DNA of 63,813 nucleotides, the filler included, from Dirinaria sp. TL-2023a (taxonomy: Eukaryota), in NCBI GenBank assembly GCA_051941275.1. It is 33 parts of 33 records of this genome, joined end to end, with 100 filler letters (N's around TTAATTAATTAA, not from the genome) between each part and the next. Parts side by side here need not be neighbours in the genome. Positions count along the whole stretch, not along the records: positions 52,455 to 54,270 come from JAVEBF010002524.1; 32 more parts are not named here. One strand, written 5' to 3'. A program made the translations under genes and the position numbers. Numbering within the stretch: the first letter of the stretch is position 1; each line of letters opens with the position of its first letter. The notes under the pieces are model-generated. The model made no database searches. It was not told where the DNA came from and saw nothing but the letters and a program-made list of their open reading frames with translations. This document shows, piece by piece, positions 52,355 to 63,813 of this stretch.

Positions 52355-53048
52355 NNNNNNNNNNNNNNNNNNNNNNNNNNNNNNNNNNNNNNNNNNNNTT
52401 AATTAATTAANNNNNNNNNNNNNNNNNNNNNNNNNNNNNNNNNNNNNNNNNNNNATGAAAAGGGGATGCGGAAAGCTTGCAATATTAACAAGTTCATAAA
52501 GGAGATATCGGTAGCCGAGATATAAGTTTTAGCCTCAAGGCTGAGAACGTAGGCACTTAGGGTACATTCCCGCCTGGATATATAGGATAGCTTGACACTT
52601 GACTGTCATCTCTACGTGGCCAATATCTATTCGAGTAGGCATCAAATGATGGTGGGAAAGCAGATGTATCCTTAGAGAGTGTCAATGTATCTACACTAAA
52701 GGATCGTCATTTCTGAAATGAATGATATTGTGCCAATAAGATGTGAAAGCTGCTCGAGAAAAATTCAATGTTCTTTAAAGACCCATGCGCATGGTCGAGG
52801 ATAACTTACAAACCCATCACATACATGTGCGTAGAACATATTTGAGAGGTTTTCCACCAATAGGGATAAGACTCTATATTCGCTTCTAAAACTCTACCAC
52901 TCTTCGTGCCTTGATATACTTAACCTTCTCTTGATTAGTACCGCTAAGGGTAATGTAGTGCTCCACTTGCTCGATAGTCCCTGTATGTCTGCGGTAACAG
53001 AGAGCGGGTAGAGCTGTTTTAGCCGCAGAACATCATCAATCTTCAAAA

Positions 53049-54270
53049 CTATCTCTCTCCAGCCTCTTTAGACCCCAAGAGTCGCATTTCCATTGCTAGT
53101 TCCGCAGCGGCAATTTCTGAGCACTCTTTTGAGCACTTCCCATCCACTCTGGCCACCTCGCAATCGTTTATCTCAACCACGCATAGGCCAGTCCTTAGAC
53201 CATTTGCGTCATTGCCATGTATATATGCAACTTTCTTTCCTGAGAAAAGCTCACACAACCGAGACTTAGGATGGCGTAGATCAATCTCATGGTCGAAGAA
53301 GTGTCTTAATTGGGTAAGAACACCAACATCCTCCGCAAACGACTTACACTGCGTCAGATCACCTTTGCTATCGATATAGATAGCACCGAGTAGACTTTGA
53401 ATAATGTCAGAGAAGAAACTATCCGCAGCTAGTCGCGCTAAATCTTGCCAAGGATAAAAGGACCCATCTGATAGAGCTGATCGGATTGATTCGGAATATT
53501 TTGTGTACCGTTTGAGGGATTCGTCCCTTCCTGTGGCGATTGCGGCACCACTGCATCTTAAAAACTTCCATATAAGGAGTGATTCACGACTATCCGCGCT
53601 ATCATATTCGTCATTACTGGTCTCTGCATTATCAGCTACTTTCATATCTAGTGACGCCCCCATGCAGAGAAACCCTAGGAAATCTGCATTGGTGGATGCT
53701 GCTTTACAGAGATGCATTTTATCCCGAGAAAGGAACTGAACGTCGCGAGTCAAACACTCGGTAACAACCATCTCTAGGACGGCATCCCCCAAGAATGCAA
53801 GCCGCTGATAACTGCAGGTCGAAATGCTCCAATCGCAAGACGGATGTGTCATTGCTTCTACCAACAGACTCTTATCATGAAACGAAAGGCCCAGTAAAGG
53901 TTCCAAGTCCATGAAGTGGGGGGGGAGCTCCTTGGGTTTTGGTCGGGACGTGATGTAAGTACCATCATATAAAGCCGCCCAAGACCATTCTTTGATCTCA
54001 GGTAGAAAGAACCTTGCGCAATCTATTGCATTGGATAGATCTTTATCTAAGAAAGCAGCTCCGATCAAGGCTTCGACAGCACCAGCCAGCAGCTTCACGG
54101 CCAATAGCCTCTCTCCTCTGGACCGGCTAGCTCCTATCTCGGAGATGTAGAGTGGTTTCCAGTTATGACCGTTGAAGTTCGTGGTGAGAACGAATTCGTC
54201 CAAACCAGCCTTCAATGCCGCTTCGACCAAACGGCTATTGGATACGATCAAGTCCCTTTGCTTTGAGAGA
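53049..54270 (-). CDS. Dicer-like (DCL2-type) C-terminus: end of RNase IIIa, RNase IIIb and dsRBD; catalytic residues substituted
   Basis: IVSNSRL...VEALIGAAFLD; LLVEAMTHPS..SYQRLAFLGDAVL; FFSDIIQSLLGAIYIDS; HPKSRL...AEIAAAE-type end. Confidence 0.9.
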
Positions 54271-54370: not shown

Positions 54371-54790
54371 GTTTTAACGCAAACATGTCAGTTTCTTTGA
54401 ATATATGCTCTTTTTTTATGACGTTAAACGCACGCAATTATCATGTGATCTGCATGTTTAATATGTTCAAATTAGAAATATGTTTTCTGTTATCGTCTCT
54501 TACGCAGAACAATCATTTTTCGAACAATGTGAATGTCGTTTAAATTTTGCTCAAATCTCAAACATCTCAATCATTTCTGATGAATATGATGATCGAGAAA
54601 AAAATTAAACAAATTTGAGAAATTTGCAAAATAAATTCATGCGACGACATCTCGTGCAAACAATCATTGACTGTTTTCGAGAATTATGTTACAGCGTTTC
54701 AGCTCGATCGATCGTTTTTTGAAAATCATCATTGTTGCACATCATGACATTTGATTTTTTCTGATTCGAAGACTGCTCGTTTCGTTTCGA
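54371..54790. repeat. AT-rich, CC/GG-depleted repeat relic abutting the Cys-rich gene
   Basis: Same dinucleotide signature as the other relics; abrupt change to normal composition at ~54795. Confidence 0.6.
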
Positions 54791-55655
54791 GTCTTCAGTG
54801 TCTGCACCTTCAGGCACCTAAAGAACCTCCAGCCAACCTCCATTGCACCTGCACCAACGAATGCACGCGCCGCTGCGTCTGCCGAAAATGGGGTTCCGGC
54901 TGCTCCAACGCTTGCGGCTGCGTCTCCCAATGCCAAAGCCAACTGAACGATCTCCCTACGCTCTTCAGTCAAGACGCTGATCTCGACAACCCTCTGCGGG
55001 CAACCCCCTGCTTCACGCGCTACCTGGCCAAACACCATGGCCCTGATCTCACACGCGATGAATTCGTCGAGAAGCTGCGCTGCAAGATGATGGAGACAAG
55101 ATACGGAGAATATACCCTCACGGATAGCGCTAGTTGGGCCTTCGATGAGCGGCAACAATTTGGCAGCGAGGACTTCATGGCCAGGTGGGGTAAAACCTGG
55201 AAAGCAGGTCTCGATACCGCTGAAAGCGCGAATGAGCTTGTCAGGCGTGACGCAGCTATACGGGCACTGTTACGATACGGTCTCACCACCGAGAAGCCCG
55301 ATGAAGCGCACTGCGATGAGTGGTTCTACTCATTCTGTCGCGGGACCTGGGAAAGAGATATGGGTCTGTGGCATTGCAGGCAAGCAGTCCCACCTCATCG
55401 CAACATGGCGCAAGTCGCTAACCAGCAAGCAGACACTGTCACGAATGCATGTCCAATAAAATGTGGCACTGCTCTCGCTGCAAAAAATGCGTGCCTGGCG
55501 GCAGCATCGATAGAGATATGCCATGCGAGACATGTGGAGGAGTGTCTGATTCCTATAATGAGCTCGCTGTGAAAGGTTATATTCCTCCGGATGGATATAT
55601 TGGTCCTGATCCATGGGGGCCTCCGCCGGATGATTACGACTCGGATTATATGTAA
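54751..55655 (+). CDS. Cys-rich protein with CXC/tesmin-like N-terminal cluster and C-terminal CxxC zinc ribbons; start codon unclear
   Basis: CTCTNECTRRCVCRKWGSGCSNACGCVSQC; GC-AG intron 55380-55432 (GCTAAC branch) gives WHCRHCHECM..WHCSRCKKC..PCETCGG. Confidence 0.65.
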
Positions 55656-56414: not shown

Positions 56415-58091
56415 TCAAGTGCTTGTAGCACGCAGCAGATTTTGCCGCTCGAACAACCGTTCTACAGGATATCGAATATCTTTGAACTCTTGGCTGCTTT
56501 CTTTATCTCTAAGGAAAATTGTAAAAGCAACCGTAAGCGGCAAGGCAGTTTCCCATTCGAACCGATCTGCAATACCATACCATTTCTTGGTACAGGCATC
56601 CGCAGTCCAGTCTTCGTGATCCTTCAGTGCCATGTGGAAAAGCCTTTTTGCGACGCTGCATATAATTTCAAAAAATTCGCGCATACCTTGTAGTGACTTC
56701 ATATCCGCTTGCACTAAATTGGGATTAAATTCGTCTGACTCTGTGGGTGTCTGATATTGTTCATCACGTTCGATCCGGAATTGCTCGTCAAGCTCGTGCA
56801 TCTGGTTAAATAGATCACCTTGCTGTGCGATGATATTCTGAGCGCCAACAGGTGTTTTCGCCCTAAGTTGTGACAGGGAATCTAGTACATCTTTGAGCTT
56901 AGAAAGGAGGGTTTCCAGGAATTCAATCGATGCATCCTTAACCTGCGAATGAGCCGTAAAGTGCTTCGTGTCGTCGGCTTTGGTATCTGGCGCGATCGAA
57001 CTCTCGTCATGCTTCGAAGCTGTCACAGCGGACGGATAAGGAGTCGTCGTATTGAGAGCATCTACGGTGGACGAGTCACTCAAGAGCTCAGCGCCTTGTG
57101 TGTTTGCCCATCGTTGCACTTTCTCGTCCGCTGTTGCAGGGTCATTCGAGTCTTCGTACATCCAAAGTGTGTTTGGATCGAGGTTGGCTCCTGAGAGCTG
57201 CTGCTCTTCGCCACTGTCACCTGAACGAATTCCGGGAACGCGTGCACCACCGCCGTCTCGAGAAAGTTCTTCGACTGTGTCGTGCTGCGGGTGTTCGGCG
57301 TCGCTACTCTGCCTCGACTCATCGACTTCCCTTTGAATACCCAGAACAGAAATTGCGGTAACCAAATGATCAGGGTAATGCTTTGCGAGCTCTTTGATCG
57401 TATTTCGAAGATGCTCATAATGCATTTCAGCTCTCATGGGTAGGTTCACTTCTTTCCAGCAGGACTTGTCCGTATTTCTCGAACGGCTCTTACTGTTAGT
57501 CGTCAGAAGCAATGGTCAAATTCTAGATTAATGCTGCATGGATTCAATTCAGACACACCTTGGATTTCTATAATGCACAGATAGGATGTCGAAAAACGCG
57601 GAACACTCATCTACAAAACCCATAAAATCTCTTGGGCTATCAATACTGCTTGTTTCGATTTTGGCTTCCAAAATGTCGTCCATATTAGACCAAAATGCAT
57701 AGTCTTCCGCAGTGTAATTCTCAAGGTTGGGCTCATAATCACGCTCGTGGATTCCAAAACTCTGTACAAGAAGTCGGAAACAGTTGCATAGAATGGAGGT
57801 GGTCTTTGTCAAGATACGCAGTGATTGCCGGCCAGTATCAAGACCCCGCATACGAATTTTCGAATTCACGTCTATTACCGAGGAGCATCGTCGTATATCC
57901 CCACTGAGGGCTCGGAATCTCTCCTCAGCTTCAATGAGCCATGAAGCTGAAACCCGAATCGGCGGCACTATGAACTCATTTGCAAATGTGCAGGTGAGAT
58001 CGACGAGCTCAGCTGCCTCTTCAAGCTGTCTTTTGAAGGCTGCATAGTACTCCACTCTCTCTTCAATCGCCTTACCTTCGCGGAGGATTTG
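56415..58091 (-). CDS. Hypothetical protein, probably multi-exon, 5' truncated
   Basis: Two long same-strand ORFs (168 and 365 aa) separated by an intron-sized gap; no family recognised. Confidence 0.5.
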
Positions 58092-60099: not shown

Positions 60100-61142
60100 A
60101 AGGTCTCCCGCATCTTCGTTGAGCAGATGAGCCATGTTCTTCTCGCTCTTGTTGAAGTCCTCAAGGTACCTCATGACTGTGATGCGTGGGGCACGTTGAT
60201 TGATGTATGCTGCGGCTTGACTGATCGCTAGTGGCACAAATCCCAGAGCCTCCAGGAGTCTTAAAGCCACTCGATCATCGAAATCGCTTTGAGCCTTCTT
60301 CTTGAAGAGCCTTAATGCTTGGCTTTCGTCCATAGATTCCACCTTGATAGTGTCTTCATACCTTCCTGTTAATCTCACAGCTACATCTCTGTTGCGAGAC
60401 GTAATGAGAATCGATCCGTTCCGTGTTTGAGGAAGATAGGCATGGAGAGGTAATGCAGCTCGAGCCACTTCACTAGCACCTGTCTTCGCCCTTTCTTCGC
60501 GCAGATCAAAAAACAGATTTGAATCATCTGCATTGTCGAGGATCATGACCCATTGTCCATGTGTCTCGTCGCAAAGCCAGTCGAAGACCAGTTGTACGAT
60601 ATCAGCAGTTGGTTCATTTCGGCCAGAAAGTTCAACACGGTTCGCAATCGTTCTGTAGCTTTCTCTGAACCGGGCAGAATTGCTTGCATAGACCCAGAAG
60701 ACCCAAACATGAGGCGATTTCTCTCGCACGCGATATGAGTACTCGATCGCCAGCTGAGATTTCCTTTTCTTTTCATCAGCTCTTTCCCATAGGACTCTAA
60801 CAGCCGCAGTATTTACCCGACGCCGCCCAGGCCATAAAGTGCAATTCGAGAAGCCGGCTTCAAGTATCTCTCTTCGATCTGGGCGAGGATATCCCGATCT
60901 ACAAAATCAGGGTCACGTCGGAAAGGTACGGTGGAGGATGGAGTAAGCTTCAATGGTAGTTCTGCCGGGTCCCGACACAGTCCTAGTCAGTATTTGTGAT
61001 TCCAGGGGTGTCTGAAGCCCGGAAAGATTGAAGAACCTTGCCGACCACCAAAGTTGACGTGTATGTGTCCTGAATTCAACGCTACCTCCACACCCTGATT
61101 GCCGTCGCCGGAAAAGCTTGCATTGGAGTTGGGGACGGCCAT
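60100..61142 (-). CDS. Fungal NLR: short N-terminal PP-like amyloid motif plus NB-ARC, 3' truncated; exons 61142-61037, 60961-60817, 60763-60100
   Basis: MAVPNSNASFSGDGNQGVEVALNSGHIHVNFGGRQ|ELP..STVPFRRDPDFVDR..IALYGLGGVG|KSQLAIEY (P-loop), WVMILDNADD, GSILITSRN, LGFVPLAISQAAAYI. Confidence 0.9.
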
Positions 61143-63091: not shown

Positions 63092-63813
63092 ATGCCTACA
63101 GAGTCGACACCATTAGGCTATCCGCTCGACAAACCCGACCAGTCCGTAGATGCTGTGTGTTTACCGAAATACTCACGTCTTTGGTGGCTGACTTGTCATA
63201 AAGTCTGAGCAGGACCGTCTGAGTGATTAGCAGCTCCAGAGCATTCATGGATGTCCACTTATGTGTACAGGTCTACAACATCGGATATTTCATCTTACGC
63301 TCGACGACCGCTTGTATGTAGCACCCATCGATACTCAACTCAGATCAATATTAGACCTGGGCTGCGGTAATGGCAATTGGGCTGTAGACATGGCCAAAGT
63401 GTTTCCTTCATGTCGTATTACTGCACTGGATTTGACAGAATCGAAAGCCGCCACACCCTCCAATGTTAAGTTCCTTCAAGCAGACTCCATGCAACCTTGG
63501 CTATTGGGTTCCTTCGACTTCATCCACGGACGTATGCTCAATGCGGCCATGCAGGATTGGCCATCATTGCTCAAACAATGCTGGGAGCATCTTGAGCCAG
63601 GTGGCTGGCTTGAGGTTCTCGACTTATGTTTCCCAATGGCAGCGGAAGACCCTCAAGCAGACGCCTTGTCGTCACCTTTTCTTCGTTATGCCCAATTTAA
63701 GGAAAAGGCGTGGGAATTGATCGGCCGAGATTTCTATTCTGGGTTCAAACAATCGCAAATAATGCATGATCTTGGATTTCAGAAGGTGAATGAGAAAGCG
63801 TTCACATGGCCGA
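63092..63813 (+). CDS. LaeA-like class I SAM-dependent methyltransferase, 3' truncated
   Basis: EQDRL..LQHRIF..LYVAPI..ILDLGCGNGNWAVDMA..FDFIHGRML..DWPSLLKQCWEHLEPGGWLE. Confidence 0.88.

Follow-up and report, generated by a model that had tools for sequence, protein, structure and literature searches.

Dicers are commonly regarded as the enzymes that do the cutting in RNA interference, and canonical fungal DCL2 proteins, studied in Neurospora and Cryphonectria and represented here by those of Aspergillus fumigatus (P0019) and Puttea exsequens (P0053), have intact E-D-D-E carboxylates in both of their RNase III centres. These carboxylates are hereinafter designated E40, D44, D107 and E110, in the numbering of Aquifex RNase III. 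We analysed a 63,813-nucleotide (nt) stretch of DNA from Dirinaria sp. TL-2023a (NCBI GenBank assembly GCA_051941275.1; hereinafter designated the window) and describe in it the 3' coding part of a DCL2-type Dicer paralog. Judged together with its orthologs, the paralog is probably like canonical DCL2 in domain order, which comprises a helicase, a Dicer dimerisation domain, a platform region, RNase IIIa, RNase IIIb and a tail resembling a double-stranded RNA-binding domain (dsRBD). The part encoded in the window is 35–42% identical to canonical DCL2, and its predicted fold matches solved Dicers. By contrast, two of the four carboxylates are replaced in each centre within the clade to which the window protein belongs, and a long branch separates that protein from canonical DCL2. 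As argued below, the paralog is likely to be a selected, non-cutting protein that binds double-stranded RNA (dsRNA), is probably driven by adenosine triphosphate (ATP) and works beside cutting Dicers.

The window consists of about 33 separate contigs of about 1.8–1.9 kb each, chained end to end in falling order of length. The 32 joins are copies of TTAATTAATTAA flanked by N runs, located at positions 1910, 3874 and onwards to 61951 of window 1–63813, with a spacing that falls steadily from 1964 to 1907 bases. Neighbouring features across these linkers therefore carry no genomic context. The Dicer piece lies entirely within a single contig, from about 52456 to 54270, wherein a minus-strand frame of 406 codons runs without a stop from 54269 to 53052 and ends at a TAG codon (53051–53049). 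This agrees with an earlier note on the same DNA, which had claimed an open frame of about 400 codons. The frame is broken off at 54270 because the contig ends there, an effect of assembly and not of mutation. Assignment of the whole feature (53049..54269, minus strand; 406 codons plus TAG) to a DCL2-type Dicer paralog is supported by the frame itself, by Pfam, whose only family call in the 406-residue protein is Ribonuclease_3, in two stretches (E 9.8e-23), and by tblastn, in which residues 783–1184 of an Imshaugia protein (P0125) align with the window at 68% identity. Full-length orthologs used as tblastn queries recover the known piece only, and the missing 5' part is on no other contig of the window.

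Tandem RNase III domains are present in the one chain, IIIa being only partly on the contig. The C-terminal part of RNase IIIa (residues 1–100; 53970..54269, minus strand), which includes the second catalytic motif KLLAGAVEALIGAAFLD, is defined by alignment with relatives and by a phmmer match to Arabidopsis thaliana DCL1, and RNase IIIb (residues 155–301; 53367..53807, minus strand) coincides with the best Pfam Ribonuclease_3 stretch. A dsRBD-like C-terminal module with the order alpha-beta-beta-beta-alpha (residues 334–402; 53064..53270, minus strand) is predicted by an AlphaFold2 model and by a Foldseek match to the mouse Dicer structure 3c4b, with no Pfam call at this site.

Three catalytic codons are replaced, all on the minus strand and exactly where the earlier note had placed them. 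GGT (54083-54081; ..KLLAGAVEALIGA..) encodes Gly63 in KLLAGAVEAL at the IIIa D107 position, which is Asp in 132/132 canonical relatives. GCA (53798-53796; ..SYQRLAFLGDAVLE..) encodes Ala158 in YQRLAFLGD at the IIIb E40 position, which is Glu in the same 132 canonical relatives and Ala or Ser in 21/21 relatives with damaged catalytic residues (hereinafter designated the dead set). CAA (53399-53397; ..DSFFSDIIQSLLGAIYID..) encodes Gln291 in SDIIQS at the IIIb E110 position, where canonical relatives again have Glu (132/132) and the dead set has Gln, Arg or Lys (21/21). Close to the IIIb active site, AGT (53418..53420, minus strand) encodes Ser284 in ADSFFSD at a position that is Lys in all 132 canonical relatives and at which constraint has been lost. 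The corresponding IIIa Lys is kept in the window and lost in many members of the dead set. A phmmer comparison with the solved Arabidopsis DCL1 pairs the three window residues as G/D, A/E and Q/E, and this pairing, together with the invariance of D, E and E among the canonical relatives, indicates that G, A and Q are not chance variation.

At the four catalytic columns of each centre, the window reads -,-,G,E in IIIa and A,D,D,Q in IIIb instead of E,D,D,E. The previous statement that both RNase III domains are affected stands for IIIb and for D107 of IIIa, with only one of the two IIIa motifs visible in the window. Judged by its sequence, the window protein is a member of the Dicer family by structure and is outside the enzyme class as defined by the active site.

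The same changes recur in other lichen fungi. A search of 5.8 billion proteins returned five clusters at 58–77% identity to the window protein, followed by a drop to 42%, the level of ordinary DCL2. Among named relatives the nearest comes from a lichen fungus of the Parmeliaceae and is CAF9937183.1, 'Dicer-like protein 2 [Imshaugia aleurites]' (P0125). The lichen clade comprises nine sequences with a mutual identity of 55–85%, all of them long open frames (831–876 residues in five clusters). All nine carry E->A and E->Q in IIIb and a replaced D107 in IIIa (G, S, C or V), so that the expectation of orthologs with the same substitutions is borne out. The first IIIa motif, which in the window protein would lie past the contig end, reads LEFLGS or LDFLGS in the eight of eight clade sequences that cover it, corresponding to D44->S. 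Across the catalytic columns the orthologs read E,S,S/C,E/Q/R in IIIa and A,D,D/E,Q in IIIb. Two of the four carboxylates are thus gone from each RNase III centre, through D44->S with the D107 change in IIIa and through E40->A with E110->Q in IIIb. The argument of the earlier note that E>A, E>Q and D>G are not C>T/G>A changes, and hence not products of a process akin to repeat-induced point mutation (RIP), is correct but superseded, since conservation of the changes in orthologs makes the RIP question moot.

Upstream Dicer modules are present in these orthologs. Pfam identifies Dicer_dimer in P0002, P0003, P0123, P0125 and P0136, the last two of which also have Helicase_C. In two sub-branches the helicase C-lobe lies on separate frames of 315–323 residues, which indicates that the 'proteins' of 830–870 residues are single long exons and not helicase-less Dicers. 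One member of the P0003 cluster, P0122 (314 amino acids, ENA), is a shorter variant in which the first IIIa motif is LGFLGS and the chain soon gives way to unrelated residues and stops; a frameshift or a prediction error in a single assembly may account for it. JGI metagenome contigs scanned with the clade alignment gave 326 pattern matches and 0 relatives.

To place the lichen clade among DCL2 proteins at large, eight catalytic columns were tabulated for 124 relatives, consisting of the hits of the search of 5.8 billion proteins and three cluster members. Fully canonical sequences account for 111 of them, the lichen clade for nine and other damaged proteins for the remaining four. A profile of the damaged proteins was also searched against 1.84 billion representatives, and the 150 best hits comprise 130 canonical proteins, 15 with at least three catalytic changes, four partial sequences and one with a single change. 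The damaged entries include proteins deposited as 'dicer-like protein 2-2' (Aspergillus udagawae, P0159) or 'ATP-dependent helicase dcl2-2' (A. uvarum, P0161; Penicillium cf. viridicatum, P0177 cluster; P. cf. griseofulvum, P0178), as well as unlabelled proteins of A. wentii, A. granulosus, A. puulaauensis and A. leporis. Beyond the lichen clade, the dead relatives fall into an Aspergillus/Penicillium group, an unnamed group (hereinafter designated group B) and one separate sequence (P0236).

The IIIb damage is common to the dead set. Replacement of E40 by Ala or Ser together with replacement of E110 by Gln, Arg or Lys is found in 21/21 members of the dead set and in 0/132 canonical proteins, and the window protein has both. 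Damage to IIIa differs, with E40->A/V in most dead members and D44->S plus D107->S/G in the lichen clade. No column is shared by at least 85% of the dead set and at most 15% of the canonical proteins, leaving the set without a new shared motif. Three group B proteins (P0011, P0158 and P0160) combine a dead IIIb with a IIIa that has a single change (E40->A); from their sequences they may be single-strand nickases, perhaps representing an intermediate stage of the family.

A damaged and an intact protein occur together in A. wentii DTO 134E9, in which the canonical DCL2 (P0013) is 29% identical to the dead paralog (P0313). For the Parmeliaceae, a named canonical DCL2 is not among the best 120 matches of either P0010 or the Puttea exsequens DCL2, a result that is not evidence of absence; the nearest named relative of P0010 is Pleopsidium flavum.

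The origin of the dead set was addressed with a site-heterogeneous maximum-likelihood tree of 47 rows, without a DCL1 root. Twenty-three damaged proteins lie on one side of a branch with a Shimodaira–Hasegawa-like approximate likelihood ratio (SH-aLRT) value of 97, namely the lichen clade with P0162 and P0207, the unnamed group and the Eurotiales group. The same split is recovered at an SH-aLRT of 90 once four motif blocks (56 columns) are removed. Trees that unite the dead proteins of the Eurotiales with Eurotiales DCL2 (p 0.001), or the lichen clade with DCL2 of the Lecanoromycetes Puttea, Xanthoria, Letrouitia and Ikaeria (p 8e-8), are rejected by approximately unbiased (AU) tests, and with them a recent order-level duplication in either the Eurotiales or the lichens. 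On the sequences compared, we lean towards one old origin for the dead set, which probably arose from one old duplication with the IIIb centre lost first. P0236 (JGI, 791 amino acids) stands apart in this tree, beside the DCL2 of Eremomyces bilateralis; its catalytic columns read A,D,D,Q / G,D,D,Q, apparently through an independent loss of Dicer catalytic residues.

To distinguish selection from decay, we compared conservation between the two sets of proteins. Forty-nine columns are at least 90% conserved in the 132 canonical proteins, and the 21 dead proteins retain 34 of these. The other 15 are concentrated around the two active sites and include, in window numbering, K59, D63, V64 and E66 of IIIa and E158, D162, D166, K284, D288 and E291 of IIIb, among them the two Lys positions at which canonical proteins never vary. 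Per-site conservation correlates between dead and canonical proteins (Spearman 0.64, n = 397 columns). Helicase motifs I–VI are found in 5/7 of the Eurotiales dead models compared, the other two being gapped at motifs Ia–III, and the lichen proteins P0125 and P0136, like group B, have motifs IV–VI intact. Identity is 50–51% between the dead paralogs of A. wentii and A. udagawae, compared with 58.8% between the canonical DCL2 proteins of A. wentii and A. fumigatus. Fold and helicase residues are kept, and it is at the active sites in particular that constraint is gone; this protein-level pattern marks a pseudoenzyme rather than a pseudogene and is consistent with selection.

The predicted structure agrees with retention of the Dicer fold. 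An AlphaFold2 model of the window protein, built from a 121-row alignment, has a mean predicted local distance difference test (pLDDT) score of 87.7 and a predicted template modelling (pTM) score of 0.85. Foldseek places it closest to dicing-state Dicer of mammals, to DCL4, DCL3 and DCL1 of plants and to Dicer-1 and Dicer-2 of Drosophila (7yyn, 9kby and 7w0b among them). The dsRBD, described as intact in the earlier note, receives a divided answer: the model and its match to the RNase IIIb and dsRBD of mouse Dicer (3c4b, TMt 0.62) speak for it, and Pfam gives no dsrm match at E up to 0.1. The modelled fold supports the view that the last 70 residues form a dsRBD-like tail overlooked by Pfam. 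Further matches are 1yz9 (Aquifex RNase III E110Q with dsRNA), 1rc7 (E110K with dsRNA) and 2ez6 (D44N with product), whose titles indicate that RNase III mutants of this type still bind RNA.

RNA libraries contain the same gene. Four RNA-Seq runs, all from a single sample labelled 'lichen metagenome', contain 24–64% of the sampled words of the stretch; contigs were compared from two of those runs and from two small-share runs, X5 and X6 supplying pieces of 151–234 nt only. The contigs span 52757/52792 to 54269 and are colinear with the window, without indels or joints. They differ from it at 8–9 positions, none of which falls in the GGT, GCA or CAA codon, indicating that the RNA-library contigs come from another individual and confirming the three codons. 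One contig, from run X1, extends 718 nt past 54270, which indicates that the gene continues upstream of the contig break. The coding differences comprise three synonymous changes, four nonsynonymous changes (one of them in a single run) and one stop change, the window TAG at 53051 (minus strand) being CAG (Gln) in the RNA-library contigs. This TAG/CAG polymorphism would lengthen the protein by two residues, and the length of the C-terminal tail also varies among orthologs. Downstream, the RNA contigs of two runs stop at 52757 and 52792, short of the end of the DNA contig near 52456. The segment 52460–52756 is without RNA-library cover, which is a weak hint of a transcript end, and on these ends of contigs, not of reads, a probable 3' untranslated region is placed at 52757..53048 (minus strand). 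The presence of the contigs in RNA libraries suggests that the gene is expressed.

We consider it likely that the window gene encodes a Dicer paralog that is under selection, binds dsRNA without cutting it, is probably driven by ATP and works beside cutting Dicers. The earlier proposal of a DCL2-like paralog kept in a non-cutting role is supported by the shared losses, the conserved columns, the helicase motifs and the colinear RNA contigs. In the mechanism we propose, the protein keeps the Dicer fold but lacks two of the four carboxylates in each centre, through D44->S (seen in orthologs) and D107->G in IIIa and through E40->A and E110->Q in IIIb, where the nearby Lys is also gone. The RNase III platform, the dsRBD-like tail and the Dicer modules upstream would most likely allow it still to bind dsRNA, and it would probably use ATP, as suggested by helicase motifs IV–VI in orthologs and by the full set of motifs in Eurotiales relatives. 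The two cuts that release a small RNA would presumably not be made. Candidate roles are a sensor or signalling receptor, a regulator or gatekeeper that sequesters dsRNA substrates, and a duplex loader; the earlier note also put forward a scaffold and a decoy for viral RNAi suppressors as possible roles. As a receptor, the protein might trigger a transcriptional response, comparable to that of Cryphonectria DCL2, which is described in PMC11194562 as also acting transcriptionally as a positive-feedback player.

Several points weigh against this proposal. Within the window, the first IIIa motif and all upstream modules (Dicer dimerisation DUF283, helicase) lie beyond the contig end, and the DExH lobe is in none of the lichen-clade models, P0125 beginning just past motif III. 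Two of four carboxylates remain in each centre (E40 and E110 in IIIa, D44 and D107 in IIIb), and with these the window protein may conceivably still cleave weakly or in an altered manner. Coexistence with a cutting DCL2 is seen only for A. wentii. The RNA contigs have no intron junction in the stretch, such that DNA carry-over in the library is possible, and the crude pN/pS (nonsynonymous to synonymous polymorphism) of about 0.4 comes from counts too small to weigh. For the single origin, the AU-test groups were chosen after the tree was viewed, and the grouping unites three long stems (0.28–0.89 changes per site), a setting in which long-branch attraction is possible.

The remaining carboxylates also leave room for a nuclease of altered chemistry or specificity, one that nicks a single strand (the earlier note, too, allowed for nicking), uses other residues or metals, or cuts single-stranded RNA, as the Mucor R3B2 protein is reported to do. 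The group B proteins P0011, P0158 and P0160, with only one IIIa change, make a nickase stage plausible in the family. We nevertheless judge this explanation unlikely for the window protein. Both lichen-clade centres are without a residue whose loss traps bacterial RNase III on RNA (E110Q, E110K, D44N), the flanking Lys that is invariant in canonical proteins is lost as well, and the replacements vary within the clade (G, S, C or V at D107; E, Q or R at the IIIa E110 site), contrary to a fixed new catalytic arrangement. Another conceivable role, in place of a free-standing dsRNA binder, is that of a non-catalytic partner for a Dicer or RNase III protein that does cut, by analogy with the degenerate RNase III subunits of the trypanosome editosome. 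Non-catalytic RNase III partners are documented (PMC9508840 and PMC6800513), the Dicer dimerisation domain is kept in orthologs and both forms are present in the A. wentii genome. A Dicer centre, however, forms from the protein's own two RNase III domains, both of which are present here, and the fold needs no partner, which makes this role rather improbable.

A decaying pseudogene, in which a redundant DCL2 copy drifts after duplication and the active-site changes are its first damage, would suit the finding of the piece on an orphan contig, 1.8 kb long, in an assembly that is fragmented, the four nonsynonymous and three synonymous differences plus a stop-codon difference between the window and the RNA-library copy, and the early end of P0122. 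It is difficult to reconcile with open frames of 831–876 residues maintained in five clusters that are only 55–85% alike, with conserved fold residues and helicase motifs among which only the active-site columns are free, with dead paralogs that diverge just slightly faster than working DCL2, and with RNA-library contigs that cover the gene; we regard decay as very unlikely. An assembly or sequencing artefact, or a chimera of the chained window, might be suspected of an artificial chain of small contigs. The whole feature is nevertheless inside one contig, the RNA-library contigs reproduce the gene with its three replaced codons, and the same changes appear in orthologs from other assemblies. 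Ortholog sharing and the RNA-library contigs together rule this artefact out.

A broader form of the pseudoenzyme proposal, which we put forward only tentatively and hold to be the less probable case, is that an old, separately conserved Dicer lineage of filamentous ascomycetes, running from Lecanoromycetes to Aspergillus and Penicillium, has had its nuclease inactivated, beginning with IIIb and followed by IIIa in separate events on each branch, and has kept its helicase, yielding ATP-driven dsRNA receptors or regulators. If true, such a lineage would be a fungal counterpart of RIG-I-like sensing on a Dicer chassis, which might for example trigger a Cryphonectria-type transcriptional antiviral response or shield dsRNAs from dicing.

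Other open frames also lie in the window. A frame at 60100-60906 (minus strand), on another contig and cut by the contig end, has a weak NB-ARC match (E 4.6e-06) and is probably part of a fungal protein of the nucleotide-binding, NOD-like receptor (NLR) type. A frame at 63231-63812 (plus strand), which runs off the window end, has class I S-adenosylmethionine-dependent methyltransferase domains (Methyltransf_23, E 6.9e-18). Three more frames, at 56415-57515 (minus strand), 57549-58088 (minus strand) and 54748-55572 (plus strand), encode 366, 179 and 274 residues and match no Pfam family at E up to 0.001.

Database names make the dead Dicer paralogs endoribonucleases by similarity. If the non-cutting proposal holds, counts of 'Dicer genes' in fungal genomes would overstate dicing capacity, and the fungal Dicer scaffold would have a non-catalytic job, for example in dsRNA sensing, substrate gating or small-RNA loading. 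RNA silencing in lichens is almost unstudied, and the paralog is a concrete candidate for the handling of viral or partner dsRNA there. Because relatives occur in the genetically tractable genera Aspergillus and Penicillium, the idea is directly testable in them.

The gene family is already in databases under enzyme names, and what appears to be new is its character as nuclease-dead, conserved, helicase-competent and present in lichens. Literature searches under the names 'dcl2-2' and 'Dicer-like protein 2-2' found no paper, and those on lichen and fungal Dicers and on pseudoenzyme RNase III found no description of a nuclease-dead fungal Dicer. The architectures of fungal Dicers were the subject of a large survey in 2025 (PMC12663654), which treats the loss of domains and mentions Mucor R3B2; the passages of it that were consulted do not mention catalytic-residue loss, and the word 'inactive' is absent from its main text.

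Among known systems, a precedent for a selected pseudo-RNase III is provided by the KREPB proteins of Trypanosoma brucei, whose RNase III domains are without catalytic competence yet required (PMC9508840 and PMC6800513). The KREPB proteins are single-domain, pair with a separate catalytic RNase III and have neither a helicase nor a Dicer architecture, and are unrelated to the window protein beyond the shared domain. The Aquifex mutants E110Q (1yz9), E110K (1rc7) and D44N (2ez6), bound to dsRNA or product, offer a chemical parallel, the E110->Q change being identical to that in IIIb of the window. These mutations are engineered, single and placed in a homodimeric enzyme, whereas the changes in the window protein are natural, doubled per centre and conserved across species. 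In RIG-I-like receptors and Caenorhabditis elegans DRH-1, a Dicer-type helicase recognises dsRNA without cutting it, and DRH-1 is described as cooperating with Dicer (bioRxiv 10.64898/2026.08.16.745104). These receptors have no RNase III domains, and their likeness to the window protein is functional speculation that serves as a working model only. The Aspergillus and Penicillium 'dcl2-2' proteins, presented by their source names as endoribonuclease or helicase, share the IIIb losses of the window protein, are also damaged in IIIa and lie on the same side of the tree branch; they are about 33% identical to the window protein and differ from it in having IIIa damage of their own, E40->A/V and E110->K/R.

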